This document shows, piece by piece, positions 4,206 through 53,368 of a stretch of 64,000 nucleotides of DNA (position 1 is the first letter of the stretch; each line of letters starts with the position of its first letter). A program made the position numbers and the translations under genes. Below the pieces are notes generated by a model. The model was given only the letters and a program-made list of their open reading frames with translations, did not search any database and was not told the origin of the DNA. Origin of the DNA: a virus; IMG/VR virus record IMGVR_UViG_3300020469_000023, positions 1-64,000 of that record. One strand, 5' to 3'.

Positions 4206-4298
4206 AAAATACAGTTTGTATATATAGTAATGTCAATGATTTTTTACGTCTAAGAAATCATTATTTTTATAACGTAAAGTAATAAGAGGAAAGTCACT

Positions 4299-4466: not shown

Positions 4467-4485
4467 AACTATGGACAAGAAGGAA

Positions 4486-11033: not shown

Positions 11034-11461
11034 AACGAATCAATGTATGCTTGTAAATTCTCCATGTCTTGAGTTGATAAGTTTGCGGCCTGTCCCCACA
11101 TTAAAGCGGATTGAGGACCTCGTGTCTCACCATTTTTATATTGTTGTAGCATTGAAACTATTGAAGTACTACCTGCTAATTTAGGGCCGATACCACCTTC
11201 TCCTGCTTGACCATGACACATTGCACAATTAACATAAGTCTTTGCACCTTTATCTGCTGGACTTTCTCCTTGCATTGCAACTCGTTTTGCTTCCATCTGC
11301 TCTGCAAACGTTCCATATTTCTTAGTATACTCTACATAACATTCTCCGAAACAACTGTGTATACGTGAATAGTCTTTAACATCTGCTGTTTGATATGCAC
11401 CATAAAGTAATCCTGAAATTCCTGTGACTGCAATTAGTATTGGTAAAAGTACTTCTTTCAT
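11030..11461 (-). CDS. Membrane-anchored monoheme cytochrome c (c553/c4-like)
   Basis: N-terminal TM, CAMCHG heme motif, GPKLAG, distal Met in SALM, LSTQDMENLQAYI. Confidence 0.9.
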   Translation of the reverse strand: MKEVLLPILIAVTGISGLLYGAYQTADVKDYSRIHSCFGECYVEYTKKYGTFAEQMEAKRVAMQGESPADKGAKTYVNCAMCHGQAGEGGIGPKLAGSTSIVSMLQQYKNGETRGPQSALMWGQAANLSTQDMENLQAYIDSL

Positions 11462-11462
11462 T

Positions 11463-18374: not shown

Positions 18375-19341
18375 TTAAATCAAACTCCGTACCATGCATT
18401 TTATATAAATCTCTTTCGTGGTTAGTCCAAACTAATACTTCGGGGTCATCTAATAAAAAATCACATGACTTGCAATAATCAGGGTAATTACCAGAAGTAT
18501 GATTACTTCTTAATTCTGTATATGCTGGTCCATTCCATATTTCTTCTATAGTGTTTTCACTTGTATGTCCTAAAACTGCTTCTTCGTCTCTACCTAAAAC
18601 TTGACAACATGGTGCAACAGCACCTTTCTTTCCGTCTAAACCGCCAGCACGTATAACGACATCAGGACTAAAAGGACGACCACAAGTTTTAATCTTACCT
18701 GTTCGTTTATCTTTATTATCATATACACCACTCCAGTTATGCATTCTCCATATCTCACTTTTTACACCGAGTTTTTTAACAAGTTCTTTATATCCTTCAA
18801 GTTCTTCTTCTTGATTATCATTATCAGTAATCAAATGATAAGTTGCGACAACACAATTGCTTCCTGATTCTTCTACGTAATCTTGCATTCGCATTATGTT
18901 TTCACATATCATATCAAAGTTACTGAAATGTGGTGGTGTTTTCTCTTGTATTCTATTATACATCCATTTTCTATATTGCTCTTGATTGTGTCCAATAAAA
19001 GAAAATCGATAGAAATCTAATCCAGCATCAACACATCTTTTCATGAATCTACCGAACATTCGATATCCATTTGAAAAACAAAATGCTTTTGCATTGTATT
19101 TCTTTACTATTTTTATATATTCATCTAAGTTCGCATTCAATGTGGGTTCACCACTACCTTCTAAGTTGACAACATTGAGTCCATGTTTTGCACAATCTCT
19201 GACATTATCTTCAAACTCTATAAGAGTCATTTTTTGTAAAAATCTTTTGTCACGTCCACCAGTTCGCATATCTTGTGGACACATAGAACATGAGTAATTA
19301 CACCCACCATTTACTTCTATTACTGCTCTATCAATCTTCAT
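18361..19341 (-). CDS. Radical SAM/SPASM-domain protein
   Basis: CNYSCSMC, GEPTL, C-terminal CGRPF...PCC...CKSC. Confidence 0.92.
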   Translation of the reverse strand: MKIDRAVIEVNGGCNYSCSMCPQDMRTGGRDKRFLQKMTLIEFEDNVRDCAKHGLNVVNLEGSGEPTLNANLDEYIKIVKKYNAKAFCFSNGYRMFGRFMKRCVDAGLDFYRFSFIGHNQEQYRKWMYNRIQEKTPPHFSNFDMICENIMRMQDYVEESGSNCVVATYHLITDNDNQEEELEGYKELVKKLGVKSEIWRMHNWSGVYDNKDKRTGKIKTCGRPFSPDVVIRAGGLDGKKGAVAPCCQVLGRDEEAVLGHTSENTIEEIWNGPAYTELRSNHTSGNYPDYCKSCDFLLDDPEVLVWTNHERDLYKMHGTEFDLNEYR

Positions 19342-25126: not shown

Positions 25127-25473
25127 TAATGGTTACGTTTACCATCAAAGACACAAACAAAATATAAGTCTTCTTCGGTATCATTATAAACTCGGTGAAA
25201 AGCACCGTCAGGAATCAAAACTACTGTCCCTGGTTTGACATCGATTTCCTGATTATCAACTGTCATAAAACCTGTTCCTTTCACAAATAAATAAACTTCT
25301 TCTTGACCAGAATGATTATGTCCTGTTGTTTGTTTATTTGCACGAAGTAATGTTGAACTCAAAACAAGATTGTTAAGAGTTTTATTATCTTTGAGTAAAT
25401 AGATTTCATTGTCTTTGACAACTTCACCACCTATATCATCAATCGTGAATTGTATTTCTTTTTGAGAGTCCAT
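25126..25473 (-). CDS. Cupin-domain protein
   Basis: GHNH.GQEEVY, IPDGAFHRVYN. Confidence 0.88.
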   Translation of the reverse strand: MDSQKEIQFTIDDIGGEVVKDNEIYLLKDNKTLNNLVLSSTLLRANKQTTGHNHSGQEEVYLFVKGTGFMTVDNQEIDVKPGTVVLIPDGAFHRVYNDTEEDLYFVCVFDGKRNH

Positions 25474-25708
25474 GTTTTACTGCTACTTCACTATTACCAC
25501 CAGCACCTTTTTTTATCTTACCAAGTAAATCTTTCCAATCACTACTCGTTCTACTTAACGTAGACCCTGCTTGTGATATTGTAGATGGTGCAGATATTCT
25601 TTTTTCAAGGTGTGGATTGTCTGCTTTAAATTTATCTAAGTCTTTATAAGACATTCGATGTTCTTCTGTCTCTTCTGTTTTAGTGTTGTAAAATTCATAT
25701 GTTATCAT
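25439..25708 (-). CDS. FmdB-like small late protein
   Basis: M.TYEFYN start, WKDLLGKIKK; TATAAATA at 25716-25723. Confidence 0.65.
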   Translation of the reverse strand: MITYEFYNTKTEETEEHRMSYKDLDKFKADNPHLEKRISAPSTISQAGSTLSRTSSDWKDLLGKIKKGAGGNSEVAVKHGLSKRNTIHD

Positions 25709-25728
25709 AATATATTATTTATAATTAA

Positions 25729-34637: not shown

Positions 34638-34943
34638 TTAATTGTCAACTTTTGCACTTGCTCTCCACTGATAACATGACCAATATCGTGCTTTCCATTT
34701 AGGACCAGGATTGTCGCAATTGTGTCTTGCTCGAAAAGATGCTCGTCTTCCTGGGTCATCACGTTTAATTTCCATATTCGGGTCACCGAAACCTACTTTC
34801 ACAACATTACCTTTCTCGTTCTTAACGTAGACATAGAACTTTTTCTTGCCATCGCTAGACCTAGTTGGGTTATTTAATGTAACTTTTCTACCTTGATACT
34901 CTGCGGCCTCTTGTAGTAAGTCTTCACAATTACATTTCTTCAT
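34638..34943 (-). CDS. Small basic virion-associated protein (DUF6321-like)
   Basis: LQE leader then VGFGDP...RRASFRARHNC...ARYWSC. Confidence 0.7.
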   Translation of the reverse strand: MKKCNCEDLLQEAAEYQGRKVTLNNPTRSSDGKKKFYVYVKNEKGNVVKVGFGDPNMEIKRDDPGRRASFRARHNCDNPGPKWKARYWSCYQWRASAKVDN

Positions 34944-34947
34944 AGTT

Positions 34948-35958
34948 CTATTTATCTTTTACTGGTTCTTCAGGTTCTCTGTCTTTATTATCTAAGTCTC
35001 CAGCATCACCTTTTACCATTTGTCGCATCTTACCAAATAATTTATTTGCTAAATTAGTATTACCTGCTTTCTTGGCACCAGTATATGCCGCGGCCATCAT
35101 CAAACCTCTTCTACCACCTGCCCAAATAGTTGACATACCACCTGTAGCAATACCTGCCGCGAGTAGACCCATACCTTTAACACCAGCAGGTGTTGCCAAT
35201 ACTTCTGTGAATCCTATATTACCTGCAATTGCTTCTGGTATACTAGATAAGTCATAGTCACTATCTAAGTTACCTGAGAATGACATTTGTAACCACTGAT
35301 ATGTTAAAAATCCTGCTATTCCTACACCAGCAACTGTTTTTAATTTAGGGTACTTATTAAGAAACTCATCAACTTTTATTGTACCTTTTTGTAATCCTTG
35401 TACCATTTGTGTGGCCGCTACTTTATCTGAGGCAAAGTTTACTGCACTATCTACTGTTTTAAGACCATCAAGTGCAACTTTACCACCACCCATACCAACT
35501 GCCTTAACTGCTTTGAAGACACTTTTTTCTTTGATTGCATTTACGAGTTCGTCTCGTGCAACACCTAAATCTTTTGTAATCTGATTTACTTCACTACTAA
35601 GTGCTTTCTTTAATGTTGGGTGTTTACTGAGAGGTTCGTTATATCTTTTCGGGTCTGGTGTATCTGCATCTGCAGAACTTGTTTTGACATCAACACTTTT
35701 ATTAGTATCAGTAGTGGGTGTGTCTTTAGTTGATAGATAAGACCTCATTGCTTTTGCAGTATCAGATTGTGGATTCTTTTTAATATAGTCTTGTTGAAAC
35801 TTTTCACCTTTGTCTTGCCACCAAGGTGTCTTTTCGTCTTCTAATAACATACACCAGTCATTGTATGTACATTCATTCAGTTCACGATTTACTTGTTGTT
35901 CAAACAAGAATGTGCCTTCTGTTAGTTCTTGGTGATTGACGTAAGTTGTAAACTTCAC
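34948..35958 (-). CDS. Putative internal virion protein with hydrophobic Gly-rich segments
   Basis: MKFTTY..ELTE leader; hydrophobic helices in the C-terminal half. Confidence 0.55.
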   Translation of the reverse strand: MKFTTYVNHQELTEGTFLFEQQVNRELNECTYNDWCMLLEDEKTPWWQDKGEKFQQDYIKKNPQSDTAKAMRSYLSTKDTPTTDTNKSVDVKTSSADADTPDPKRYNEPLSKHPTLKKALSSEVNQITKDLGVARDELVNAIKEKSVFKAVKAVGMGGGKVALDGLKTVDSAVNFASDKVAATQMVQGLQKGTIKVDEFLNKYPKLKTVAGVGIAGFLTYQWLQMSFSGNLDSDYDLSSIPEAIAGNIGFTEVLATPAGVKGMGLLAAGIATGGMSTIWAGGRRGLMMAAAYTGAKKAGNTNLANKLFGKMRQMVKGDAGDLDNKDREPEEPVKDK

Positions 35959-36560
35959 TTAGTTATATCTCCTGTAGTCACATACATTTTTTGATTACTA
36001 TGCAAATGAATTGCAGTATATATGTCAAGTCCTAAAACTTCATCTACAGGAGTTGATTCTTCTTCAAGAATTCTTATTTGGTCATCTTTATGTGTATCAG
36101 TATAAATGCAAGTCATACTGTCATGTTTCATTCTATAGACACCAGGAGATAATTGTTTGTCTTCTAACATAAACCATTGTGTATCTTCTGCAAGTACATC
36201 TAGTATATCAATACCAGTTGCTTCGTGAATCTTGCGAAGATTCTTATCTGATAATTCACCATGCTCTTTGATAAGTGCTAATGCGGCACCATATCTTGCA
36301 ACAAATGATTTACCACCAGGGACTTTTGCTAATAAAGATTTAAGTCTAATAACAAGACGTAGAAATGTCGTGTAATGTGTTGACAATTCCATTCTACCAT
36401 CCATTGTTAATTTAAGTTCTTCTTTCTTTTTCTTATCTACTTTACCTTCTTTATCGATGAGACCAATCTCATATGCACCTAATTTTTCAAAAGGTGTAGT
36501 TAACAACTTTAAAAATCGAAGTGTATATACCAGGTCTGCGGCAGATTTTAGAATTCCCAT
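35955..36560 (-). CDS. Conserved T4-like late protein
   Basis: DLVYTLRFLKLLTTPF..AYEIGLID; TATAAATA at 36566-36573. Confidence 0.75.
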   Translation of the reverse strand: MGILKSAADLVYTLRFLKLLTTPFEKLGAYEIGLIDKEGKVDKKKKEELKLTMDGRMELSTHYTTFLRLVIRLKSLLAKVPGGKSFVARYGAALALIKEHGELSDKNLRKIHEATGIDILDVLAEDTQWFMLEDKQLSPGVYRMKHDSMTCIYTDTHKDDQIRILEEESTPVDEVLGLDIYTAIHLHSNQKMYVTTGDITK

Positions 36561-36568
36561 ACGTCTAT

Positions 36569-36925
36569 TTATATCTCTCGAAGTTTCTCGACAACATTTT
36601 TATCCATTTCTATGTTGGTATACTCTTCGTTTTTAATTGTTTTAAGAAAAATAAGAAAGGGTTTGATAACTGGCCAGTATTCTAGTTCTAGTTTAAGTTC
36701 AAGAATATTAAGACCTGCTTCAATGTCAAAGACATTAAAGATTACAATAAGATGATTTAGTATAAGACGTTCAGAAAGAACACCACTATCTCTGTAACGA
36801 TTAAGTAATCGTTTGATGTATTTAAAACGTTTTAAATCTTCAAGAAAATCGTCTGTGTCAATACACTTTGGATTGTAGTAATTCTGAGCGGCATAGACTA
36901 ATAGATTATCTTTCGTTAACTTCAT
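36569..36925 (-). CDS. Conserved T4-like phage protein
   Basis: YYNP.C...FLEDLKRFKYIKRLL...ERLILNH. Confidence 0.8.
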   Translation of the reverse strand: MKLTKDNLLVYAAQNYYNPKCIDTDDFLEDLKRFKYIKRLLNRYRDSGVLSERLILNHLIVIFNVFDIEAGLNILELKLELEYWPVIKPFLIFLKTIKNEEYTNIEMDKNVVEKLREI

Positions 36926-36950
36926 GATATACTATTATGTATATCAATTC

Positions 36951-37256
36951 TTAACTAAAAAGTTCTTTTACAGTTTGTAGTAGTGTTGCTTTTGATTTTC
37001 TTCTATCTAACTCAACACCTTTTTCTCTAGCAAGTGATTCAAGTTCTAACTTATTCATTTGGTCTAGACCTTTGTTATTAGCAGGTGCTTCTGTTAACAC
37101 TTGTGCTTTTTTAGGTTTAGCACCAAAAAATAAATCTATTTCTTCTGTAGTAAATCCGGCACTTACATAAAGTTCGCCTGTGTCAGGGTCTTCCCAACCG
37201 TTCGCAGTAGGTACTGCATTTTCACACCAACCTGGTGCAACTGGTTTAATCGCCAT
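36951..37256 (-). CDS. Hypothetical protein with C-terminal HeH/Rho-N-like motif
   Basis: MNKLELESLAREKGVELDRRKSKATL. Confidence 0.65.
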   Translation of the reverse strand: MAIKPVAPGWCENAVPTANGWEDPDTGELYVSAGFTTEEIDLFFGAKPKKAQVLTEAPANNKGLDQMNKLELESLAREKGVELDRRKSKATLLQTVKELFS

Positions 37257-38944
37257 TATTTTTCTCCTTTAGTCTTTGGTAATTCTTTTGGTTGCATAGG
37301 TAAATCTTTTGGGTCATTGTCTTTAACCATTGTACCTTTATCACCATTCTTTCTTTTTGCCATTCTTTCTAAAAATGACTTAGCATCTTTAGTTCGTGCA
37401 TCAAAAGGATTTCTGTTATCTTCTTTAGCACTAGCAACTATCTTTCTCATTTCAGGTACATTTTTACCTGATAATGCCTTAATTGCTAAGTCCATAAGAG
37501 TATTTTCAGTTTTAATTGATTTCTTACCTTCACCTTCTTTAGGTTCTTTTTCACCTTTAACAGGTGCTTCTGTAGATTTAATAGGTTTAGAGTCGCCTTT
37601 TGCTTGTTGTTGTTTGACATGTTTGCCTTGTTTAGTGTCTTTAGCAGTTTTAGAAGTGTCGTCTATTGCTTTTTCACCATCAACAACTACGTCTTTTTTA
37701 CCATGTGCATCTACAAAGTCTGTCTCACCTTCAGGATTGTTCTCACCTTTTTCTTCTGGTTCAGAACCATCTTTCTCTTTTTTCTTCTTACCAACAGCAT
37801 CAACTGCCATTAGTTCGTTTAAGAGATTAGTAAAGTCTGATACTTGTGCGGCCTCACTCAATTCTTTTTGTACATCTTTAATAGTTTTTGCCTTAGCACT
37901 AACTCCTAAATTTCCCTTAGCGAATTTAATAAGTACAGCATCTGGACCTGACATTTGAACATTGTCACCGCCAAATGGACTAGAACTAATTTTTTTAATT
38001 TTAATACCAAGTTTTTTTGCATTTCGTCCGCCGGCGCTAGAACCTTCATAGTCATCAACTTTTATTGTACCTTCACCAATTTTAGAGATTTCTGCTTCTT
38101 TTTCACCAGCATTACCAGAAGTTTTCTTTTTCTTTTTGTCTTCAGGTTTTTCTACGCCAACTTTTGGTTTGTCTTCTTCTGCATCATCTTCACTAGGTTT
38201 GTCTGCATCAGGTACCATAGGTTTCTTTTTCTTCTTCATTGGGTTTTCATCTGAGTCCATCATTTTTGGTTCTTCTTCTTCTTCGTCCTCTTCTTTCATT
38301 TTTTTCTTTTGACTCTTAATCATTTTGTCATCGTCTTTGTGGACTTTTTCTTTGTGTGCTTCTGTTTGAAGAATTTGCATGTCTTCTGCAGGGACTTCTT
38401 TTTCTATACCATGAGCAAACTCAACATCATACCAGTCAACAGAACCGTCATCGTTTGGTATTGCATGAGATTCGTATACTGGTTTACCAAGTCCAAACTC
38501 TGGGTGGTCAACGTAAGTTGCACAATCGTGGTCTTTAGAATGACACATTTCACGAATGTCATCTAAACTAAATGATTCTTTTTGAAGTTTGTTTAATTCT
38601 GATTGAACATCATATTCTTTATCACCAACTTTAAATTTCTTTTCACCTTTTTCTTTTGCGGCCATTAATGCTTTACTAAATGCATTGCCTTCTTTTTCCA
38701 TTGCTTTTGAAACTGCTTTACGTCTTTTGTGAAGGAATTTATCAGAAGAGTCAACATCGCCATCGTTATCAATGTCTTTGTCTTTTCTATCGTCAAATTT
38801 CTTTTTAACTGCTTTAGGTTGAACTGCATCTAACCCATCGCCATCATCTGACTTATCGTTCTTGTTTGTTTCGTCAAGAACTTCTTCTTTTTGTTCGTAC
38901 ATACTTCTGTATGCATTTTTAATATTCTGATTTATGTCTGCCAT
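37256..38944 (-). CDS. Highly charged modular prohead-core/internal protein
   Basis: K/D/E-rich; DIDNDGDVDSSD motif; modules bounded by L/I-x-E; start moved to MADIN. Confidence 0.65.
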   Translation of the reverse strand: MADINQNIKNAYRSMYEQKEEVLDETNKNDKSDDGDGLDAVQPKAVKKKFDDRKDKDIDNDGDVDSSDKFLHKRRKAVSKAMEKEGNAFSKALMAAKEKGEKKFKVGDKEYDVQSELNKLQKESFSLDDIREMCHSKDHDCATYVDHPEFGLGKPVYESHAIPNDDGSVDWYDVEFAHGIEKEVPAEDMQILQTEAHKEKVHKDDDKMIKSQKKKMKEEDEEEEEPKMMDSDENPMKKKKKPMVPDADKPSEDDAEEDKPKVGVEKPEDKKKKKTSGNAGEKEAEISKIGEGTIKVDDYEGSSAGGRNAKKLGIKIKKISSSPFGGDNVQMSGPDAVLIKFAKGNLGVSAKAKTIKDVQKELSEAAQVSDFTNLLNELMAVDAVGKKKKEKDGSEPEEKGENNPEGETDFVDAHGKKDVVVDGEKAIDDTSKTAKDTKQGKHVKQQQAKGDSKPIKSTEAPVKGEKEPKEGEGKKSIKTENTLMDLAIKALSGKNVPEMRKIVASAKEDNRNPFDARTKDAKSFLERMAKRKNGDKGTMVKDNDPKDLPMQPKELPKTKGEK

Positions 38945-38946
38945 TT

Positions 38947-39243
38947 TTATCCCCAAAGAGCATTACTTATTACACTTGCTATAACTGTTGCACAAGAAAC
39001 TATTACTATCCAAAAAACTCGATGAATTACCATAACAGTTTGAGCATTTGATTGAACTTGTGCCTCTATAGCATCAAGTTTCACACCATGATTGTTCATT
39101 CTGTCGTGGCCATTCGATAGTTGATTTTCAATACTCACTATCTTCTCTTCGACTCTTGCCAATGAAACGATAGCATCTGACAGTTTATCGATTTTATCTT
39201 CGATTCTGTCTAAACGAGTGGTTGAAGTTTCCTTTGCGACCAT
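38947..39243 (-). CDS. Coiled-coil protein with C-terminal TM (XhlA/holin-like)
   Basis: RLDRIEDKIDKL heptads plus TM. Confidence 0.65.
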   Translation of the reverse strand: MVAKETSTTRLDRIEDKIDKLSDAIVSLARVEEKIVSIENQLSNGHDRMNNHGVKLDAIEAQVQSNAQTVMVIHRVFWIVIVSCATVIASVISNALWG

Positions 39244-39310
39244 TTTTTCCCATTTAAGTAAAATTTATACTTTTATTTATACAAATTAATTTCTAGACAT
39301 TGAGTATGAC

Positions 39311-40099
39311 TTAAGAAAAACCTTTATTTTTGTGTAGTTTTTTATTGTCTTGCATGTATTTTTCACATAATAACATACCTAAATCAACTATTGAGTAGTC
39401 AAAACCTAAATAATCAAAAATTTTTATTAATTGTTCTTCTCTTTCATCTTCATCTTCTGTATGTAATAACTTCATTGGGTCTATATGTAACCAATCGTGG
39501 GGTTCTGGTATCCAGTCTTTATATCGTTGTGTAGTAAATAAATTAAATTCTAATGGAGTTTCCCAGATATCACCAATATTGTTTAAACCGAACTCTTGTA
39601 ATAAAGGAGTAAGTTTATTTATTGCAATTCCTTCTGGTTGATTGAATGCCGCAGTTTCTGACATAGTGTGAGTACCTTTACCAAACACTTTTATTTGTGC
39701 TAAGTCTCGACAAAACTTTGAACCTTTAAGTTCTGTTGTATTTAAAATAATAGTCTTCGATACATTCCAATCTGAGTATAAACCTTTTATCCATTGGTCT
39801 TCTTGTACTACATATCCATAACAGTGGTCAATTCGTAATGTCCACTTATCGTTTGAAGTTGTCCAAAGTTCTTCAAAAAACTCTTTTGGACTGTAATCAA
39901 CAAGGCATTTGTGTGTGCCTAAACCTAAATAAAGATGAGAATGATGGTCGAATCTGTCTCTTTTAAATTCGTATTTAGTAATATTATCTATTTTGTCAGT
40001 TTCATGTTGATTGAATTCATGATGGCGTTGTAGATATGATGCTAAGAATTCACCACCATTTCCACCTAAATAATGTATATTTAATAATTTATGTCTCAC
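39311..40099 (-). CDS. Hypothetical protein, possibly P-loop/sulfotransferase-like
   Basis: YLGGNGGEF N-terminus; KIFDYLG near C-terminus. Confidence 0.5.
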   Translation of the reverse strand: MRHKLLNIHYLGGNGGEFLASYLQRHHEFNQHETDKIDNITKYEFKRDRFDHHSHLYLGLGTHKCLVDYSPKEFFEELWTTSNDKWTLRIDHCYGYVVQEDQWIKGLYSDWNVSKTIILNTTELKGSKFCRDLAQIKVFGKGTHTMSETAAFNQPEGIAINKLTPLLQEFGLNNIGDIWETPLEFNLFTTQRYKDWIPEPHDWLHIDPMKLLHTEDEDEREEQLIKIFDYLGFDYSIVDLGMLLCEKYMQDNKKLHKNKGFS

Positions 40100-40108
40100 A
40101 AAAAGTAT

Positions 40109-40447
40109 TTATTTAGTTTTTACGTACAGTCTATTTTTTGCTTGTTTTGTATTATCAAATGACATACCATACATTTTACCTATTCTATTGAGTTGTATGA
40201 CTCTTTGATTGCTAGGCATGTTCATTAATTGTTTTTGCATTGTACCAAATAGTTTTTTCATTGCATCTATTTCAGTAGTAACCATTTGTCCTTCTTCTAC
40301 ATTTTCACCACGAGCATTCTTAAAATCTTGGGCCGAAGGTGCGCCTTTCTCACCAGGTTTTCTCATCTTCTTACCACTTTTTCGTTTCTTATGGATATTG
40401 GCCCATAAAGACTCGTTTGAAGAAGCGAATTGTTTAAATGATTTCAT
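40109..40447 (-). CDS. Putative internal head protein with capsid-targeting-like leader
   Basis: MKSFKQFASSNE then SLWANIHKKRK...KPGEKGAPS. Confidence 0.7.
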   Translation of the reverse strand: MKSFKQFASSNESLWANIHKKRKSGKKMRKPGEKGAPSAQDFKNARGENVEEGQMVTTEIDAMKKLFGTMQKQLMNMPSNQRVIQLNRIGKMYGMSFDNTKQAKNRLYVKTK

Positions 40448-43155
40448 TTTCCGAGTAGTCTTTTTAGACCTTGAACTGTCATTTTCTTATCGTTCATTGC
40501 AGTTTGAACTTTAAGTCTGTCTTGTGGTTTACGAATTGCATCAAACTTTTTCATCATCATCTTAGCATCTGCTGGTTTCAACATTACTTTTTTACCATTT
40601 CGTAATTCTATTTGTGCAGGTCTTTGTAAATCTGTAACTTTTCTTATTTGCATAACAACATTTTTATCTGCGGCCTTTCTGTCATCTTTAGTTGCAACAC
40701 CGTAACCATCATCGTCTTTATCTTTACGTTTACCCATATCTCTCATTGCATCTGCTTTTGCACGAGACATAGATTCTGTATTTATTGCCTTTTCTAAATC
40801 ATCTGCCTGTTTTGCATGAGTCTTAGAACCACCTCTTAACTTCTTAACTAAGTCTTTGACAAATGGTTTGTCTTTGGCATCTAATGCTTCTGACTTAGGT
40901 TTCTCATGAGTATAACCCATTTTACCAAACTTCATATGGTCAGCATATGTATTTGCCATGACTTCTTTATCACCCTTATACATTTTATGTGGTTTAAAGT
41001 CTTTCTCATCTGCACATTCATTCTTAGGTTTCTCACCTCGTTCTTTCTTAGAGATTGCAATTGCGGCCTGTTGTGCGGGAGATACTGCTTCTATTTTATA
41101 TTTTTTACCATAATTAGTCATAAGTGTTTTTAATGCTTTTAAATCTCTTTTGTCATAGGCATTTCCCAAAGCAAGATAAAGTGTAGAATCAATTTGTCCT
41201 TTTGGTTTAACAATCTTAGCAATTTTTTCTTGTTCTGCTTTACCCAATCTAGGGAATCTTTCTTTAACTCTTTGTAATATTGCTTTTTGGTTAGGTGATA
41301 CTGCTTCTTTTTGCATTAACATTTTAGTATTAAGAGTTCCAATCATTTTAAGGATTGAGTCTCTTGCATCTAAAACTTTTTTATAGTCTTTGTTATGTCT
41401 TGTATCTTTTAATTCTTTATCACCTATAGTTGCAATCTTTTGATAAGTTTGTAAAACCTTTTGCATGTCTTTGGAGAGTTTTTTCATTGCATCTACTTCT
41501 TGTCTTGTGACTTCTTGTAAATCAGTTGACTCTTTTCTTGATTTACCAGCAACTTTCATTGTAAGATTAACAAGTCCTGGTAATTTAAGTGTGTCCATTC
41601 TTTTCTTGTTCTGTGAATTAACTTTGTCATATACAGATGCTATCATACTTGCAGTTGTTAAGTCAAGTTGCATACCGTCTATTTTCATCATAGATTTTTT
41701 CTTAACTACTTGACGAACCTTCTTCATAGTTGCAGACTCTTCGTTAAGTGGTGTACCTGATTTATAACCTTCGTATATCAAACTGAATATTAATCCATTA
41801 CTTGCTTGTAAAATAACTTCATAAACATCGTCCCTAATTGCAGTATCTAAATCTGCAAACAAGTTTAATTCTTTAGGGTCTCTCATTATCTTTTTACCCT
41901 TTTTAGTAATAGTCATTCCTTTTGAGATTACATCAATTATCTTCTTAATTTTTGGGGCGTCCATTTCATCTCTCGGTTCACCTTTACCAAAAGCGGCGCC
42001 TTTCTTAGCGGCACCTCTTCTATCTTGGTTCATTATTCTTGCAAGTGACCTAACAATAAGAGAAGTATTCGGGTCTTTTATTTTATGTTTACCGTCTTTC
42101 TTTTTCTGAAGCATGTCCATGACATCATCATGTTCCATTGCTGGACCCGATGCTCTAGATTTTTTGAATTTGGTTCTAATTTTTCGTTCAAGACCGTCTT
42201 GGCCTGGTTTTAGTGCAAATTGTTTTTCTAACAAGTCAAGTTGTTCTTCAAGAGAGTTTAGTTGTGCAAGTACATCTTCTGTTGCAGTATCTTTAGTTCT
42301 TTGTATTTCGTCTTTCTCTTGTTCTGCTTCTCTTTTATGTTTTGCTTTTAAGTCTGCCATTTCTTTTGCTCTTTCAACTGCATCTTCAATTAAAGACGGG
42401 TCTCCATAAGATGATTTACCTCTTGCCACTGCATCAAAGTCTCTTAACTGTTTCTTATTGCCACTCATAGTTACAAGAGTATCATTACCTTTTTTCTTAA
42501 ATGCTACTTTCAACTTCATTAACTTTGCAGATGAATTAAACTTGTCCATTTCAGGTTTTTGTATACCTTTAACTCGGTAAGTCATCGTATTTTCATTTAT
42601 CGATTCTTTCATAGCAGGTAGTTCACCCATTTTAATCGCCATTCTTGAGAAACCTTTTGGATTTTGTTTCTGCATTGACTGTAAAACTTTAACACTAGTC
42701 ATGTTCATAAGATTTGCAATACCGTCTATCTCTTTTCTATTTCTAGTTTTGAATAGTTTACCCAACTTATCTTCCATAGACTCTTCAAGGTCTTTTCTTT
42801 TTAAAACTTTAGTTTTCTTTACTTTACCAAGTGGTATACCATCTGGCATTGCAACAGAAGTTGTGCTTGTCATATCTTCGTTTGCAGTTTTAAGTGCTTG
42901 TTGAACAACAGGCATCTTTGAAAGACCTCTTTTAAGTTTTTCTATTTCTTTACTTGCGAGAGTATAATTACCACCTAAATCAAGTGCAAGTTCAATTGCT
43001 TTCTTAACTGTCTTGTCTTTAGCGGCCATTTTTGCTTTAGGATTATCTTTATAATACTTTGCAACTTCTTGACCCGTAAGTTTAGACTTACCCATTTTAG
43101 ATAATGGGTCTAACTTACCACCTTTAACTCTTTCAGATATGTCTCTGAACTTCAT
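40444..43155 (-). CDS. Putative virion-packaged polyprotein of basic modules
   Basis: MKFRDISE leader; about 12 Lys/Met-rich modules bounded by Glu sites. Confidence 0.65.
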   Translation of the reverse strand: MKFRDISERVKGGKLDPLSKMGKSKLTGQEVAKYYKDNPKAKMAAKDKTVKKAIELALDLGGNYTLASKEIEKLKRGLSKMPVVQQALKTANEDMTSTTSVAMPDGIPLGKVKKTKVLKRKDLEESMEDKLGKLFKTRNRKEIDGIANLMNMTSVKVLQSMQKQNPKGFSRMAIKMGELPAMKESINENTMTYRVKGIQKPEMDKFNSSAKLMKLKVAFKKKGNDTLVTMSGNKKQLRDFDAVARGKSSYGDPSLIEDAVERAKEMADLKAKHKREAEQEKDEIQRTKDTATEDVLAQLNSLEEQLDLLEKQFALKPGQDGLERKIRTKFKKSRASGPAMEHDDVMDMLQKKKDGKHKIKDPNTSLIVRSLARIMNQDRRGAAKKGAAFGKGEPRDEMDAPKIKKIIDVISKGMTITKKGKKIMRDPKELNLFADLDTAIRDDVYEVILQASNGLIFSLIYEGYKSGTPLNEESATMKKVRQVVKKKSMMKIDGMQLDLTTASMIASVYDKVNSQNKKRMDTLKLPGLVNLTMKVAGKSRKESTDLQEVTRQEVDAMKKLSKDMQKVLQTYQKIATIGDKELKDTRHNKDYKKVLDARDSILKMIGTLNTKMLMQKEAVSPNQKAILQRVKERFPRLGKAEQEKIAKIVKPKGQIDSTLYLALGNAYDKRDLKALKTLMTNYGKKYKIEAVSPAQQAAIAISKKERGEKPKNECADEKDFKPHKMYKGDKEVMANTYADHMKFGKMGYTHEKPKSEALDAKDKPFVKDLVKKLRGGSKTHAKQADDLEKAINTESMSRAKADAMRDMGKRKDKDDDGYGVATKDDRKAADKNVVMQIRKVTDLQRPAQIELRNGKKVMLKPADAKMMMKKFDAIRKPQDRLKVQTAMNDKKMTVQGLKRLLGK

Positions 43156-43163
43156 TGATACTC

Positions 43164-43430
43164 CTATCTAAATGCTACTGAAACTCCAAGAACTGCCGCG
43201 TTTGCCGCAAATATCTCGTCTGTCTTACCTTTTCTTACGTATATCTCTTGATTACCAGCAAGTGTAAAAGTTCCTATTGCCACTCCAGCAGAAGTTTCAA
43301 CTGTAACTAATCTTGCAGTACCACCACTATTAATAAGGCGAACTAATCCTGCTTTACCAAAATTACTACCATTAGTAGTCGATGTACCACATGCGGCCTC
43401 TGTTCCTAATACTTGAATATATCTTGCCAT
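43164..43430 (-). CDS. Small beta-rich putative virion protein
   Basis: GGAG SD; Gly/Ala/Thr-rich. Confidence 0.6.
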   Translation of the reverse strand: MARYIQVLGTEAACGTSTTNGSNFGKAGLVRLINSGGTARLVTVETSAGVAIGTFTLAGNQEIYVRKGKTDEIFAANAAVLGVSVAFR

Positions 43431-43439
43431 GTTTTTCTC

Positions 43440-43685
43440 CTAACCTAAATCTTGGTCGTGATTTAATTTAATACCTTTCTTTTTCTTAGTAATGAAGGCA
43501 TTAACTCTTGCCATACCCCATTGTGCTGGAGTTGTCCCTGGTCTATGACCAGTTCTCCATGCGGCAACACCTCTATCGAATACTTTTTTTAAAGTTTTAA
43601 ATGCAAATCCAGACTTTGATGCCTTGTTTTGAAGACCTTTAGTCGAACTTTCTTCTATTTCTGCATATTCTTTAAAAGATATCAT
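43440..43685 (-). CDS. DUF5824-like basic protein with capsid-targeting-like leader
   Basis: Start moved to MISFKEYAEIEE, after TATAAATA 43691-43698; VFDRGVAAWRTGHRPGTTPAQWGMARVN. Confidence 0.75.
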   Translation of the reverse strand: MISFKEYAEIEESSTKGLQNKASKSGFAFKTLKKVFDRGVAAWRTGHRPGTTPAQWGMARVNAFITKKKKGIKLNHDQDLG

Positions 43686-43701
43686 GTTTCTATTTATACT
43701 A

Positions 43702-44940
43702 TTAGTCATCGCCAAACATTTGTTTGTATGATTTCGTATGTTTACTAAGTTTTGTTCCTTTCTTTCTTGCCTTTTTGTCTCCAGGTGCATCTTTGTATGC
43801 AGATGGATTATCATCGTCCATCTTACCATGTTTAGCAAAATGTGATGCTCTAGAACTTTTCGTTTTCTTTGCTACACCTTTATAGTAAACAGATGGTTGC
43901 GAACCTTCTTTATCTTTGACATCTTTATCTTGAGCAACTCTTGCCTTTTCTTTTTCCATGATAGTCGCAACGTCATCAACAATTTTTTCTGCAACACGTT
44001 TAGCAGTAGCAGTAGCAATTGCCATTTTTTTACTCATGTCCATTTTAGGGTTATCTTTTTCAATTGCTTTTGCTATCTCTTCTCTTTTCTTAAGTTCTGC
44101 TGGTGTTAGTTTCTTTTCAACAAGTTCTATTGCATCTAACCATTTACGTACTTTCTTTTTATCACTTGTTTCAATAATAACATAATTAGAACCTAATACT
44201 GTAATAACACCAACTTCTTCTGATTCTTTGATAACAACAGTATCGCCTATTTCATAAAGACTACCTTTGATGTAGTTCTCTCGAAGTTCGTTTAATTTAC
44301 CAAGGTCAACATGACGTTTGAACTTTTTCTCTTCTTTAAGTCCCATGCCTTTACGAACATCATTAAATAACTTACGAGTATCTTTATCATTCATTGTGCT
44401 TGGTACACCTTGAGAGAATGCAGTATAATCATTTTGTTGAGCATTTGCTCTTTGTTTTGATGCAGACATACCAGCAACTCCTTCAGCATCTGGGTCACGT
44501 TCACCTGCAGACAATACATTAATTGATTCAAAGTTGTAGAAACCATGTCTACCTTTGACACCATTATACTTTTTCAATAGTGTGTCAAACTCTCTAACTC
44601 TATCAGAACCAACAATCATATTTACTTTACGATATCCTTGGTCATATAGTTCTGTTACAGCATCAAAGGCAGTTCTTATCTTTTTATTAATGATAATACT
44701 TCTACCATGTTTTGGAAACATTTTTCGCATATGTTTGATTTTATCTGAGTAAGATAGTGGGTCTTTCTTTGGATTAGATACTTGTGAAGTAAAAACTTTA
44801 TAGTCATTTCTACCAGATTTCTTTGCTAAATTTTCAAGTACTTTACCATGTCCAATAGTAGGTGGATTCATTCTACCAAACGTGAAGAATACCTCTCTTT
44901 CTGCTTCAATTAAATATTGTGAAAAGTTTTTGATTGCCAT
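43702..44940 (-). CDS. HIGH-motif nucleotidyltransferase (cytidylyltransferase-like) with C-terminal basic modules
   Basis: FTFGRMNPPTIGH, VGSDR, SAGERDPDAEG..GMSASK; leader MAIKNFSQYLIE. Confidence 0.85.
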   Translation of the reverse strand: MAIKNFSQYLIEAEREVFFTFGRMNPPTIGHGKVLENLAKKSGRNDYKVFTSQVSNPKKDPLSYSDKIKHMRKMFPKHGRSIIINKKIRTAFDAVTELYDQGYRKVNMIVGSDRVREFDTLLKKYNGVKGRHGFYNFESINVLSAGERDPDAEGVAGMSASKQRANAQQNDYTAFSQGVPSTMNDKDTRKLFNDVRKGMGLKEEKKFKRHVDLGKLNELRENYIKGSLYEIGDTVVIKESEEVGVITVLGSNYVIIETSDKKKVRKWLDAIELVEKKLTPAELKKREEIAKAIEKDNPKMDMSKKMAIATATAKRVAEKIVDDVATIMEKEKARVAQDKDVKDKEGSQPSVYYKGVAKKTKSSRASHFAKHGKMDDDNPSAYKDAPGDKKARKKGTKLSKHTKSYKQMFGDD

Positions 44941-44946
44941 GATATA

Positions 44947-45309
44947 TTACTTATCTTCTTTAGATTTCTTTTTCTTTGCTAACTCATCTTTCCTTACTTG
45001 TGGTAAAATCTTTACAGCAAACTTTTTAATCTTATTTTTCATTTTGTCAAGTTTTTTCTCAATCTCATTTCTTCGAGCAAGAGATACTTGTTGAGGTGCT
45101 TGACCTTTAGTTATTTTCTTAAAGAACTTTAGACGTGCTTTTTTCAATGCACGTTTCTTTAGTTTCTCAGGTGATGCTATTTTACGGGCCGCTTTCTTTC
45201 GACCCATTGCGATTTTTGCCTTGATTTTTTTGAATTGACGAGACCTCTTCAACCTTTGTTGAACTGTCATTGCTTCGTCTGTAGTTGTGAACTCTTTAAA
45301 TGATTTCAT
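44947..45309 (-). CDS. Extremely basic prohead-core-like protein
   Basis: MKSFKEFTTTDE leader, then K/R-rich helix. Confidence 0.7.
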   Translation of the reverse strand: MKSFKEFTTTDEAMTVQQRLKRSRQFKKIKAKIAMGRKKAARKIASPEKLKKRALKKARLKFFKKITKGQAPQQVSLARRNEIEKKLDKMKNKIKKFAVKILPQVRKDELAKKKKSKEDK

Positions 45310-45310
45310 T

Positions 45311-47557
45311 TTACCTCGGTTTATCCCATCCTTTCAATATATTAGCAGAAAAGTTATTATAAGAAAATTCTAATCTATCAACTAACTTAACTGCACCACC
45401 ACCTAACTTATCAATAGCAACATATCCTTCTGCACCTGTTGTTTTATAACCATTTCTTGTTTTTACAAATGCATCTATATTGCTAATGTTGTTTAATCTA
45501 TTTATAAGTTTTAGTTTTGCGAGAACTATATTCTTCTGTAAATCAAACATATTGACAAGCGAAACTCTATTTTGTGGTGAAAAGAACTTTAAAATTGTGT
45601 CTAATTTATCTTGTTGTGTTTGTTTTCCTTTTGCAGTTTTACGTTTGTCCATTTCTTTTTTATATTTATTCTCAATCCAACGTATCAATCTTGCAGTATG
45701 TTTCTTACTGTCTGGTAACATTTGCCCTGCTCTAACAAAAGTATTATTGTATTGTTCGATTAATTGTGCAAGTTCTGGATTCTTTTCTAGTTCTCGAAGT
45801 GTATCACCAGCGACTTTGTTAAAAAGAAAACCAGCAGTACTTAAATAACCTGTAACTTCTGTTGTTTCTTTTTCATTCATTGTTGCCTCACCAGCGCCAC
45901 TTAGTTCTGCATCTTGCGACCAAACTGCTGGAGAAGATGGTATCTTTTTCACACCATACGATGCTTTCATTGATGCAAAGTCTTTACCTTTATATGTTGT
46001 ATGCCAAACTATACCAATCTGTGACTTAGTAATACGTTTGGCCGCTTCTGTACCTGATTCAACTGCATAGACAATTGTGTTTGGGTGAAATGTAATATAC
46101 TGCTTACCATCTATTTTAGTTTTACTTAAGTCTTGTTTTGAGTATAAGAAGTCTCCTTGTATGACATCTTTAATACCAAGATTCTTTAAATGCTTCAATG
46201 CAAGTTTTAGTTTCTCTGCTAAATCGCCTGAAGTATCAGCATCAATATCAGCATTTGATTTATATACTTTTGGATTCTTAGCAAAGATACCTTTCTTAGC
46301 AACAAAGAACTTACCATCACTTGGGTCTTCACCACAGAAGATTGCTGGTGCACCATCCCACTTAACTGACATCTTAGTTGATGATTTACCTGCTAACATA
46401 TCACGTATACTTCTCAAGGCATTGATTGCCTCTCTTGTACCTTTGACTCCACCATACAAAACTTTATCTTCTATATGTGTCATGTGTGTATTCTTTTCTT
46501 CTGGTAAGAAAAGACTTTTGTAAGATTCTGTCTGAAATGGTGTCAACTTACGATACTTTTTATTGTTCTTCGGGTGATATTCCATGTAGTCTTCGTTTCT
46601 TTCTTTAGTTTTCTTTTTCATCTTATTAATATATGTACGATAGATTGCCGCTTCTGCAGATTTACCCATTTCTTTTGCACGTTGTTCCATAGCAACTGCC
46701 GCTTGGATTTTGTGTGCATGTTTTTTACCAGAGTTTTCTATCTTCTTAACACTTGCTCTTGCAGTTTCAACGTCTTTAAATCCTAATCCATGTATTGTAC
46801 CTTTAGGGTTTTCATCTGTATATAAATCAGAATGTTTTTTAGAGTTAGCGGGTTGACCTTTCTTTCTAGGTATTCTAGGGTTTGTCTCTTCTTTCTGAGT
46901 CTTTATCCACTTTTGTGCAATTGGATTCATAGGTTTCTTGTCTGCAAATTGTTTTATTATTCTAAATGCTCTAGTTGTTTCTTTATTATAGTCTTTTCCA
47001 TCTGAGTTGTCAACTATTGTCAATCTACTTTTAAATGCTCTTTGATATTTACCAACGTTTCTTTGAACATTGTCCCACATCTTTGCAACTTCTTTCGGGT
47101 CTAGTTTTCTTGCTCTTTCCATATTTCTACGTAAAGCAGTTTCTTTATCTGTGTTGACAAATATCATTGCAGTAGAATAACCTAATTCTTTTAGTTTTTC
47201 ATTCTGTCTAATTATTTTATCTGCATCACGCCCTGTACCATCAATGACTAAACCAAGTCTGCCTTTCATATACATCATTTGTTGTTTTGCAGTCAACTCT
47301 TTTGCTTTAGTTCTTATATCTTGACCACCAACAGAAAAAATATTATCAGGGTTCATTTCTAGACCTGCTTGATTCATTGCACGTTCAAATGCAGTATCAG
47401 AATTTACAACTTTAAAACCTAAAGATGTAAGTCCTGTTTTACCAACAATAAATGATTTACCACTACCTGGTCCACCAGCAAGAAAGATTGCTTTGAAGAT
47501 TGCAGGGTCATTAACACCTTCTTCAACTTCTGCTATGTGTTCATTAAAACTTAACAT
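45311..47557 (-). CDS. Multidomain protein: P-loop kinase + basic module + ligase-like (DUF6267-like) domain
   Basis: GGPGSGKS, VIDGTG, R...R lid; SVKWDGAP, IQGDFL, EGYV, VKLVDRLEFS. Confidence 0.75.
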   Translation of the reverse strand: MLSFNEHIAEVEEGVNDPAIFKAIFLAGGPGSGKSFIVGKTGLTSLGFKVVNSDTAFERAMNQAGLEMNPDNIFSVGGQDIRTKAKELTAKQQMMYMKGRLGLVIDGTGRDADKIIRQNEKLKELGYSTAMIFVNTDKETALRRNMERARKLDPKEVAKMWDNVQRNVGKYQRAFKSRLTIVDNSDGKDYNKETTRAFRIIKQFADKKPMNPIAQKWIKTQKEETNPRIPRKKGQPANSKKHSDLYTDENPKGTIHGLGFKDVETARASVKKIENSGKKHAHKIQAAVAMEQRAKEMGKSAEAAIYRTYINKMKKKTKERNEDYMEYHPKNNKKYRKLTPFQTESYKSLFLPEEKNTHMTHIEDKVLYGGVKGTREAINALRSIRDMLAGKSSTKMSVKWDGAPAIFCGEDPSDGKFFVAKKGIFAKNPKVYKSNADIDADTSGDLAEKLKLALKHLKNLGIKDVIQGDFLYSKQDLSKTKIDGKQYITFHPNTIVYAVESGTEAAKRITKSQIGIVWHTTYKGKDFASMKASYGVKKIPSSPAVWSQDAELSGAGEATMNEKETTEVTGYLSTAGFLFNKVAGDTLRELEKNPELAQLIEQYNNTFVRAGQMLPDSKKHTARLIRWIENKYKKEMDKRKTAKGKQTQQDKLDTILKFFSPQNRVSLVNMFDLQKNIVLAKLKLINRLNNISNIDAFVKTRNGYKTTGAEGYVAIDKLGGGAVKLVDRLEFSYNNFSANILKGWDKPR

Positions 47558-48644
47558 TTCTTTTTACTCTAATATCTGGTATCGCACCAAGAAAAGATGT
47601 AAGTTGTCTCAAACCTTTTTTAAAAAAGTTTGTAACTTTACTCCATGTTTTACTTACAAATGATTTAACTTTATTTAATATGTTAAATTCAACTAATGTT
47701 TCTTTTTCATTTGTATCTAATTCTTCTGTCATAGAGTCTACTATTAATGAAATTACTGACCAGAAAAAATATTCTCCAGTTCCACCTTTTTCATTAGTCG
47801 GAGATACAAGTTCTTTTTTAGTTCGTTGTGATGTTTTAAACCTTGTTTGAAGTTTCATTGCAGTTGCTATTTTTTCACAATAACTATCATCATTAACATC
47901 ATGAATTTCTACTTTTCCACCGTCAGCAGTAGAGACCAACATTAAGTCTGCAGATGCTGGACTACTTTTACCAAATTTTTCATAACCTGACATTGCTTCT
48001 CTGGCAAATTCTATTTTAAATTCTTTAGACTGATTAAATAAATTACCAAGTTCTTTCATACAATCTTTGTGTGCTTTTTCCGCGGCATTAACTACTTTGT
48101 TTGTACCCGCTTTAATTAAAGGTCTAATTTTTGAAGGTGCTAATGTATTTTTTACAAAACCTTCTAATACTTGATTTGTTTTTTTATATTGTGGACTTTT
48201 TACTAAATCTGAATTAGAATTTTTAACTGCCGCTTGAAACGTTGCAGTTGATTCTGCTTTACCGCCAGACATTAGTTGTGCTAAACCTATTTTAACTGAA
48301 AAGTTTTTATCACCTATTTTTACATCTGTTTTTGGTGTAGTATCAGAAGCATCATATGATTTCCAAAAATCTGTTAAACTAGATTTTGTTCTACCAAATA
48401 CTTCTGCTTTTTTATTTTTTAGTTGTGGGTAATCTTTTAGTATTTTTGTTGCAATTAATTCACCTGTTTTTTTGGCACTTGGAGTATTTTCTATTTTATC
48501 GTAAAGTTGTTGTTTAATACCATAATCTTCTGTAGATTCCATTACTCTTTTAGTTACAGTATAAAAACCCATAACTATTGCCGCTTCATAATCTTCTGCT
48601 TTTAATTTTGCTTCTGTCAAAAAATTATTTTTAAATGAATGCAT
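47544..48644 (-). CDS. Putative PD-(D/E)XK nuclease-like protein with capsid-targeting-like leader
   Basis: MHSFKNNFLTE; YEAAI...TPKTDV..FSVK...QLMSG. Confidence 0.55.
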   Translation of the reverse strand: MHSFKNNFLTEAKLKAEDYEAAIVMGFYTVTKRVMESTEDYGIKQQLYDKIENTPSAKKTGELIATKILKDYPQLKNKKAEVFGRTKSSLTDFWKSYDASDTTPKTDVKIGDKNFSVKIGLAQLMSGGKAESTATFQAAVKNSNSDLVKSPQYKKTNQVLEGFVKNTLAPSKIRPLIKAGTNKVVNAAEKAHKDCMKELGNLFNQSKEFKIEFAREAMSGYEKFGKSSPASADLMLVSTADGGKVEIHDVNDDSYCEKIATAMKLQTRFKTSQRTKKELVSPTNEKGGTGEYFFWSVISLIVDSMTEELDTNEKETLVEFNILNKVKSFVSKTWSKVTNFFKKGLRQLTSFLGAIPDIRVKRNVKF

Positions 48645-48816
48645 ATCCGAACTCTGTTAATATCTGTTGTTTATCTATTGCTTCATCAAGAGGCAATCTC
48701 TGTATTGTTGATGTAAAGTTGAAAAATTCTGTGATGATTACAGTATCATCTTCTAGAATTGAAAAGTTGACGAAGTGTCCTTCGTCTTCCATTGTTCCTG
48801 CCCAACATTGTGTCAT
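48631..48816 (-). CDS. Small hypothetical late protein
   Basis: TATAAATA at 48823-48830, 6 nt upstream. Confidence 0.55.
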   Translation of the reverse strand: MTQCWAGTMEDEGHFVNFSILEDDTVIITEFFNFTSTIQRLPLDEAIDKQQILTEFGYAFI

Positions 48817-48834
48817 AACTACTATTTATAATAG

Positions 48835-53360: not shown

Positions 53361-53368
53361 TATAAATA
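53361..53368 (+). promoter_or_regulatory. T4-type late promoter of the curli-like operon
   Basis: TATAAATA 7 nt before ATG 53376. Confidence 0.75.

Follow-up and report, generated by a model that had tools for sequence, protein, structure and literature searches.

Seven genes in a block of late genes, at positions 34,638–48,644 of a 64,000-nucleotide (nt) stretch of viral DNA (the window), carry what their N-terminal sequences identify as a genuine T4-type leader. These leaders (8–14 residues) probably serve as T4-type capsid-targeting and processing signals, which would direct the proteins into the prohead and be trimmed there by gp21. The window makes up the initial 64 kb of a 99-kb contig (IMG/VR record IMGVR_UViG_3300020469_000023, estimated to be 57% complete), and its source is an uncultured, T4-like marine myophage. 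A megablast search against a phage collection gave a sole match of 166 bp (80.8% identity) to Pelagibacter phage Mosig, which we left out of the comparison because it is a draft genome with ends that cut through the cluster. The nearest cultured relatives at the protein level are phage C48C1, the OM43 phage Melnitz, and Pelagibacter phage HTVC008M. Related loci are referred to by L-numbers (L004 is phage C48C1, L040 is S-8S53, and L051 is Melnitz).

The original prediction had listed nine open reading frames (ORFs) as leader-bearing, and all nine, with their N-termini, are present exactly as quoted on the minus strand. N-termini were scored with a foreign-built profile hidden Markov model of 12 positions, derived from 58 leaders of nuclease proteins (p366 family) of other genomes, with the window sequence excluded. 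Among the 147 N-termini of the whole contig, seven of the nine genes (starting at 43685, 44940, 48644, 40447, 47557, 35958, and 45309) took ranks 1–7 with 9.3–14.0 bits, and the next best N terminus reached 8.8 bits. Five real gene starts match the strict core M-x-S-F-[KN]; all lie within 40109–48644, and the 1760 candidate starts of the contig include one spurious match besides. The full pattern (two aromatics three residues apart, followed by [LIVMT]-x-E) is found in 5 of the 147 genes, compared with 0.5 expected from shuffled N-termini, and at 1 of 731 internal Met positions. Applied to 21 non-redundant related loci, the profile gave at least 9 bits to 59 of 406 ORF N-termini, all on the operon strand, whereas shuffling gave 0.3 and internal Met windows gave 5 of 1639. 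Synonymous codons vary among the leaders, indicating that selection acts on the peptide.

A bare [LIVM]-x-E within the first 16 residues is common (39 of 147 genes). Therefore, the starts MKFRDISE of a 903-amino acid (aa) protein and MKKCNCEDLLQE of a 101-aa protein prove nothing by themselves, and neither gives a score with the leader profile. The proposed number of about nine genes thus resolves into seven that are well supported by the profile, one (903 aa) that is plausible as a bearer of a short leader of the type found in T4 Alt, and one (101 aa) that has lost its leader in the window phage, as its orthologues bear good ones. The further idea of a dedicated 14-kb locus does not hold, because the leader genes span 8.5 kb (40109–48644) plus one gene at 34948–35958, and the block also includes seven genes without leaders. 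The leader was said to be absent elsewhere in the window, and this is correct; one weak further case lies outside the window. A borderline tagged gene outside the cluster encodes 89 aa (25439–25708, minus strand) and starts with MITYEFYNTKTEE, 8 nt after a TATAAATA; it fits the loose two-aromatic pattern and gives no profile score.

The likeness to the T4 capsid-targeting sequence (CTS) is found in register when the leaders are set against the sequences of the T4 internal proteins (IPs) I–III and of Alt. In T4's own record, IPII and IPIII start with MKTYQEFIAE, IPI starts with MKTFKEFTSTT...ITE, and Alt starts with MELITE/L (the slash marks the cleavage position here and below). Mutagenesis of the T4 CTS assigned targeting to residues 4 and 7 and processing to residues 8 and 10 (PMC9026906). 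The window leaders feature Phe at position 4 and Phe, Tyr, or His at position 7, followed by [LI]-x-E. MLSFNEHIAE aligns with the T4 CTS in exact register, and the window also has MKSFKEFTTTDE and MKSFKQFASSNE. Aromatic targeting residues at positions 4 and 7 are found in six or seven genes; the 101-aa protein lacks them, and the 903-aa protein fits the short Alt type only. The putative processing sites are LTE/A, IAE/V, LIE/A, IEE/S, ISE/R, and LTE/G, and two leaders end in TDE/A and SNE/S.

Beyond the window, the contig encodes a T4-type head module consisting of a portal gene, an acidic gp67-like core protein, a 69-aa basic protein, a protease, a scaffold, and a gp23-like capsid protein. 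The protease is of the gp21 type (Peptidase_S77, Pfam PF03420, 6.7e-41; PHROG head maturation protease, 9e-77), and the scaffold matches the PHROG scaffolding protein (6.5e-73). The contig therefore possesses both the gp21-type S77 prohead protease and the gp22-type scaffold core that are expected alongside T4-type, CTS-bearing head-internal proteins. The capsid protein contains MLFE/AAP near residue 55 (an LFE/A site), and the 25 [LIVM]-x-E sites of the scaffold protein fit a gp21 substrate. A gene for a gp55-type late sigma factor is also present on the contig.

The enzymes that had been proposed among the tagged proteins are supported by Pfam and fold matches: the set includes a P-loop kinase together with a ligase-like domain, a nucleotidyltransferase with a HIGH motif, and a protein with a restriction endonuclease fold. 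The last of these, a basic 366-aa protein, is a predicted nuclease of the HinP1I/MspI fold. Its AlphaFold2 (AF2) model (predicted local distance difference test score, pLDDT, 88) was aligned by VIA-align with HinP1I (Z 10.4, 188 residues aligned), MspI (Z 9.8, 200 aligned), and HhaI (Z 6.9), with 179–200 residues aligned, and other chains gave Z values of at most 5.2. Foldseek returned MspI with a probability of 0.99 and a second match with 0.90. The fold is thus shared over most of the chain with type IIP restriction endonucleases (PD-(D/E)XK). Across 60 diverse relatives, residues Glu-20, Asp-107, Ser-116-x-Lys-118, and Glu-131 are invariant, and the Ser at the middle position is unusual for a (D/E/N/Q)-x-K motif. 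The equivalent position reads N-x-K in MspI and Q-x-K in HinP1I.

The leader is conserved as part of this nuclease family. Its Glu (Glu-11) is kept in at least 90% of the 60 relatives and ranks among the ∼20 best-conserved columns, beside the putative catalytic residues. The family comprises 405 clusters at 50% identity, most members of which start with M[KR]x[FL]xx[YF][LI]xE. In a 96%-identical relative (L005), homology of the nuclease gene with the window breaks exactly at the codon for the leader Glu.

The 748-aa product of the adjacent gene is a fusion of a P-loop kinase and DUF6267. Pfam assigns Zeta_toxin (PF06414, 4.8e-11, 42.9 bits versus a cut-off of 22.3), AAA_33 (7.4e-9), and DUF6267 (2e-102), and the Walker A motif GGPGSGKS is present, as required of a Zeta-toxin/AAA_33 P-loop kinase. 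Within DUF6267, Lys-60-Trp-Asp-Gly-63 is at least 90% conserved, and QGD130, Glu-371-Gly-372, and Lys-385 are invariant. The AF2 model of DUF6267 (pLDDT 79) yielded weak but repeated VIA-align matches to RNA ligases (5cot, 1xdn, 2hvq, 6n0t, 9r3w, and 1s68) with Z values of 5.0–5.7 only (158–196 residues aligned), and "ligase-like" is therefore a lead. Foldseek gave no match for the DUF6267 model, and PDB sequence searches with DUF6267 and the nucleotidyltransferase, as single sequences and as profiles, gave nothing meaningful.

A relic leader is embedded at the junction of the two domains. Stand-alone DUF6267 orthologues start with MEKFSSFITE/EKNTH or MKNFTNYLAE/AKNTH, and the kinase/DUF6267 fusion of L014 keeps an intact leader within the chain (MGKTFTNFITE/QKNTH). 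Pelagimyophage-type orthologues consist of the tag followed by KNTHMTHIED, and the cyanophage ones start with MAKNTHLEHLED and have no tag. According to PHROG profiles, DUF6267, the nucleotidyltransferase, and DUF5824 are fused in other phages, whereas the window encodes them as separate genes, each with its own tag. Products of gene fission thus each bear a tag, and fusions keep an embedded one; in these sequences, the tag is a portable, conserved module.

The link to virions comes from the 412-aa nucleotidyltransferase. It scores above the cut-off for Pfam PF01467 (22.1 versus 21 bits) and matches the PHROG "cytidyltransferase" profile (5e-70). Its motifs FGRxNPxTxGH and SAGxRDP...GMSASKxR are invariant, including Thr-28-Ile-Gly-His-31 and Ser-159-Ala-Ser-Lys-Gln-Arg-164, so that both the (H/T)xGH and the C-terminal SxxxxR signatures of HIGH-motif nucleotidyltransferases are found. 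DUF5824, which in the window forms an 81-aa protein with the top leader-profile score, is fused to the C terminus of the nucleotidyltransferase in other phages (PHROG 3041, positions 604–665). Two orthologues of the 412-aa protein, the cytidylyltransferase ORF154/gp154 of S-CREM2 (PMC10665884) and the NMNAT ORF91 of S-SCSM1 (PMC9602691), were detected in CsCl-purified virions. They match with E values of 1e-39 and 5e-58 and start with MKNFSSFLTE/A and MKSFLQFLKE/A, respectively. In S-SCSM1, neighboring genes of the syntenic block also encode virion proteins. The authors of both proteome studies noted that NMNAT-like/cytidylyltransferase enzymes are frequent in virions (PMC10665884, PMC9602691). 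The S-CREM2, S-SCSM1, pelagimyophage, and Melnitz papers make no mention of a capsid-targeting sequence, and the link of the leader to cyanophage virion proteomes is new. In two GenBank entries, cytidylyltransferase starts appear to be placed too far downstream (C48C1, 10604–12013; S-8S53, upstream of 5569), and the leaders MIKNFSQYLLEE and MSFFKRVRTILE reappear when GTG codons lying 66 and 45 nt upstream, respectively, are taken as the starts.

A T4-type loading tag on seven or eight neighboring late genes suggests that their products are probably packed into the virion. The tagged genes would be transcribed late by means of the gp55-type sigma factor. The leader would then bind the nascent scaffold core (the gp22 and gp21 homologues), and the proteins would be enclosed as the shell forms. 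Finally, the gp21-type serine protease would cut after the Glu of [LI]-x-E, and the mature, strongly basic proteins would stay in the head with the DNA. The cargo is predicted to comprise the HinP1I/MspI-fold nuclease, the fusion of P-loop kinase and RNA ligase-like nucleotidyltransferase, the NMNAT-like nucleotidyltransferase, the DUF5824 module, and several Lys-rich proteins. Core binding, Glu cleavage, virion presence of the other tagged proteins, and ejection with the DNA are what we infer from the T4 IPs and Alt. Delivery to the host and action early in infection, drawn from the same analogy, are possible, with the chances slightly below even.

Several points weigh against packaging and delivery. 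Two of the nine leaders (those of the 903-aa and 101-aa proteins) are not distinguishable from chance. The nuclease of L005 starts with MQPLLE/A and lacks the aromatics that target in T4, and the internal LPE/E site at the kinase/DUF6267 junction has a Pro at P2 and may not be cut. Cyanophages have DUF6267 orthologues that function untagged; delivery in the virion is therefore no inherent property of these enzymes. Storage of a nuclease beside the genome would be hazardous, and a cargo of 85–100 kDa must unfold to exit via the tail, although T4 Alt and CTS–β-galactosidase fusions do take this route (PMC9026906). The virion support comes from cyanophage orthologues of one member, and the authors of those proteomes themselves warn that late proteins made in large amounts may be carried along during virion purification (PMC10665884, PMC9602691). 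Tags are also borne by HTVC008M (gp126, gp139, and gp143) and Melnitz (genes 15–18 and 27), and cultured systems for testing therefore exist.

The best-surviving alternative accepts that the tag targets the prohead but holds that the proteins serve inside the head only, as scaffold accessories or DNA charge-neutralizing filler, or are degraded and expelled like T4 gp22, gp67, and gp68, and are not host effectors. The 120-, 112-, and 903-aa members are indeed of low complexity and Lys-rich and show no enzyme fold, and a weakly leader-like gene for a 69-aa basic protein (3.1 bits) occupies the gp67/68 position in the head module. Moreover, cleavage at [LI]-x-E is shared by the core proteins of T4; yet the nearest models, the T4 IPs and Alt, do leave the head by ejection (PMC9026906). 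Four members (nuclease, kinase, ligase-like domain, and nucleotidyltransferase) keep their predicted catalytic motifs across hundreds of relatives, which makes no sense for inert filler. We consider a head-only role unlikely.

A bolder scheme than packaging alone starts from the nuclease. In this scheme, the capsid would be preloaded with a first-strike and repair kit that enters with the DNA, including a restriction-type endonuclease, an RNA end-healing and -sealing kinase–ligase, and an NMNAT-like enzyme that makes NAD. Purged of the nuclease target, the genome of the phage itself would be immune, and fused enzymes would be split in the head by the prohead protease at embedded leaders. The contig indeed contains no GATC (289 expected) and no AGCT (95 expected), and CGCG is found 5 times (19 expected), whereas GCGC and CCGG are near expectation. 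Some relatives purge other sets of palindromes (observed/expected: L018, GTAC 0/49 and GATC 0/94; L011, CCGG 0/9; HTVC008M, TCGA 0/11; Melnitz, GATC 2/97), and nine loci (L024–L026, L028, L029, and L032–L035) purge none. We rejected a tie between the GATC/AGCT purge and the tagged nuclease: with different palindromes purged among relatives, and GATC purged in some that have no visible p366-family gene, the correlation is imperfect. No C5-methylase turned up in the 99-kb contig, which covers an estimated 57% of the genome. This scheme seems somewhat less probable still than a purely structural role. Separately, Melnitz (3808–5992) has an M.HhaI-type C5 methylase beside a gene for a 328-aa protein, as well as a tagged homologue of the HinP1I/HhaI-fold nuclease, which makes GCGC a candidate target type for that nuclease family.

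The leader could also be the tag of another process, such as recognition by a modifying enzyme, degradation, localization, or translation initiation on AT-rich late mRNAs. A radical-SAM enzyme is encoded in the window (18361–19341), and genes start only 6–8 nt behind TATAAATA motifs, so that the first codons could matter for leaderless translation. However, the motif agrees at each position with the CTS determined by experiment in T4, the variable synonymous codons point to the peptide, most late genes with the same promoter spacing have no tag, and tagged orthologues were found in virions; we regard this explanation as improbable. Chance resemblance, N-terminal compositional bias, or a gene duplication remnant is conceivable for the 903-aa and 101-aa proteins in a genome whose AT-richness makes MK starts and [LIVM]-x-E common, but it is refuted for the seven genes by the shuffle and internal-Met controls, by the unrelated folds of the mature parts, and by the leader's conservation over the 405 nuclease clusters, and as a general account it is very improbable.

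Prohead targeting is thus the reading we retain, and the composition of the block can be set beside it. The eight proteins encoded in 40109–48644 have isoelectric points (pI) of 9.4–11, and the seven leader-bearing ones among them contain 13–28% Lys, whereas the genome mean is 8.5% and the leaderless 88-aa protein (p88) has 3.4%. The internal proteins of T4 are also basic and make contact with DNA through their lysines (PMC3012670). The S-SCSM1 gene whose product p88 weakly resembles, ORF39, lies between those for the portal and the protease and encodes a virion protein. Orthologues of the 903-aa protein start with MKKFKGISEE or MKKFKQIKE. A "string of beads" model, with this protein as a polyprotein cleaved after many Glu residues, gained no support and was rejected, as its 13 [LIVM]-x-E sites compare with 12.6 from shuffles. 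The length of its gene product varies from 805 to 975 aa among near-identical contigs. Short basic modules are shuffled among the Lys-rich block proteins of different phages (40444–43155, 37256–38956, and the C-terminal part of 43702–44940), with recurring modules such as LTPAExKKREEIAK and E-AVSPxQQAAIAI-SKKE; the latter appears two times in the 903-aa protein and is shared with Melnitz gene 21 and L030. Homologues of the 336-aa protein were found in near-identical contigs only, and Pfam searches with ten further tagged proteins from related loci gave no families.

As originally noted, several of these genes follow late promoter-like motifs (Table 1). Other such motifs precede block genes without leaders, close variants lie 6–7 nt before 34638–34943 and 39311–40099, and one TATAAATA lies inside the kinase/DUF6267 gene, 190 nt upstream of the next gene. 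The same arrangement is found ahead of head and tail genes. Overall, TATAAATA is not enriched (19 copies versus ∼31 expected from base composition) and is informative only by its position 6–8 nt before starts. The pattern (T/G/A)ATAAATA occurs at this distance before many starts (25716–25723, 36566–36573, 43691–43698, 48823–48830, and 53361–53368; contig 77796 and 98935). This spacing leaves no room for a ribosome-binding site, suggesting leaderless or near-leaderless late mRNAs. Between the promoter at the operon head and the nuclease gene lies a 61-aa acidic ORF (48631–48816, minus strand), which is absent in L005, where the promoter directly precedes the nuclease gene.

Table 1. Features of the tagged gene block and one related gene of the head module
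Feature	Position	Strand	Leader or start (position)	Remarks
Late promoter-like TATAAATA	48823–48830	minus		Operon head; 6 nt before the 61-aa ORF 48631–48816, which precedes 47544–48644
366-aa basic protein	47544–48644	minus	MHSFKNNFLTE/A (48612–48644)	Restriction endonuclease-like (HinP1I/MspI) fold, predicted
748-aa fusion	45311–47557	minus	MLSFNEHIAE/V (47528–47557)	P-loop kinase (∼46979–47494), basic linker, DUF6267 (∼45344–46492)
Relic leader	46496–46525	minus	SYKSLFLPEE/KNTHMTHIED	Kinase/DUF6267 junction
120-aa protein	44947–45309	minus	MKSFKEFTTTDE/A (45274–45309)	28% Lys, pI 11; near match to T4 IPI start MKTFKEFTSTT
412-aa protein	43702–44940	minus	MAIKNFSQYLIE/A (44905–44940)	HIGH-motif nucleotidyltransferase (cytidylyltransferase/NMNAT-like), Lys-rich tail
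Late promoter-like TATAAATA	43691–43698	minus		6 nt before start of 43440–43685
81-aa protein	43440–43685	minus	MISFKEYAEIEE/S (43650–43685)	Pfam DUF5824, 8.5e-17
88-aa protein (p88)	43164–43430	minus		No leader, inside operon; weak likeness (E 0.009) to S-SCSM1 ORF39
903-aa protein	40444–43155	minus	MKFRDISE/R (43132–43155)	Lys-rich (17%); short start, Alt-type candidate leader
112-aa basic protein	40109–40447	minus	MKSFKQFASSNE/S (40412–40447)
336-aa protein	34948–35958	minus	(M)KFTTYVNHQELTE/G (35917–35958)	GTG start; 9.9 bits, rank 6 of 147; C-terminal half Gly/Ala-rich, hydrophobic
Late promoter-like GATAAATA	34949–34956	minus		6 nt before start of 34638–34943
101-aa Cys-motif protein	34638–34943	minus	MKKCNCEDLLQE	Leader absent; orthologues start MKKFKQYIDEGCCEAC, MKKFNDYNEIDAHCEC, or MKAFKQYMHE
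69-aa basic protein	contig 89068–89277		MKTFFSLRE/A	Weakly leader-like; outside window, directly upstream of head protease gene; 3.1 bits with leader profile

The principle of capsid targeting by a leader is already known from T-even phages; the novelty lies in the enzymatic cargo, in the placement of tags where genes were fused or split, and in the connection with cyanophage proteomes. If the interpretation is correct, the T4 principle would be at work in some of the ocean's most abundant phages (the pelagimyophage, OM43 phage, and cyanophage relatives) and would offer a mechanism for a published puzzle, the recurrence of NMNAT-like enzymes and kinases in cyanophage virion proteomes. The range of injected cargo would widen from small inhibitors and one ADP-ribosyltransferase to nucleases, RNA repair-like enzymes, and nucleotide cofactor enzymes. 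As the tag is a simple sequence rule, virion cargo would become predictable from metagenomes.

The closest known counterparts are the T4 internal proteins. They share with the window proteins an N-terminal propeptide (10–19 residues) with aromatics at positions 4 and 7 and an [LI]-x-Glu end (cited in PMC9026906 and PMC3012670). In both cases, the phage has a protease of the gp21 type and a core of the gp22 type, and the mature parts are basic and mutually unrelated, with conservation confined to the tag. In both systems, the tagged genes are clustered and swapped as cassettes. In contrast to T4, the window lineage belongs to marine Kyanoviridae-like phages of streamlined heterotrophs. Its predicted cargo is mostly large and enzymatic (41–100 kDa), whereas T4 IPs are inhibitors or DNA-binding proteins of 8–20 kDa. 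Its seven or eight tagged genes, here read from the genome, form one late operon, and tags in this group mark fusion and fission points of multidomain enzymes. The contrast drawn in the original prediction, with a cargo much larger and more enzymatic than IPI–III, is softer than stated, because T4 already packages Alt, an enzyme of 682 aa.

Alt, a head-packaged and injected ADP-ribosyltransferase, resembles the window cargo as a large enzyme with a short propeptide (MELITE/L) that is removed by gp21. Alt thus sets a precedent both for enzymes as cargo and for short starts such as MKFRDISE and MQPLLE. Its enzymology is different, and Alt is also trimmed at the C terminus. S-CREM2 gp154 and S-SCSM1 ORF91, as orthologues of the 412-aa protein, share with it the syntenic block and the leader; these proteins were reported from virions without a loading mechanism, whereas in the window it is the leader that is identified. 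A more distant parallel is found in the ejection protein boluses of the giant phages SPN3US and phiKZ-like phages, in which a protease related to that of T4 trims numerous proteins inside the head after Glu, and these proteins reach the host (PMC5694885). Giant-phage propeptides differ in being long and not of the MKxFxxF type, and the cargo includes virion RNA polymerase subunits.

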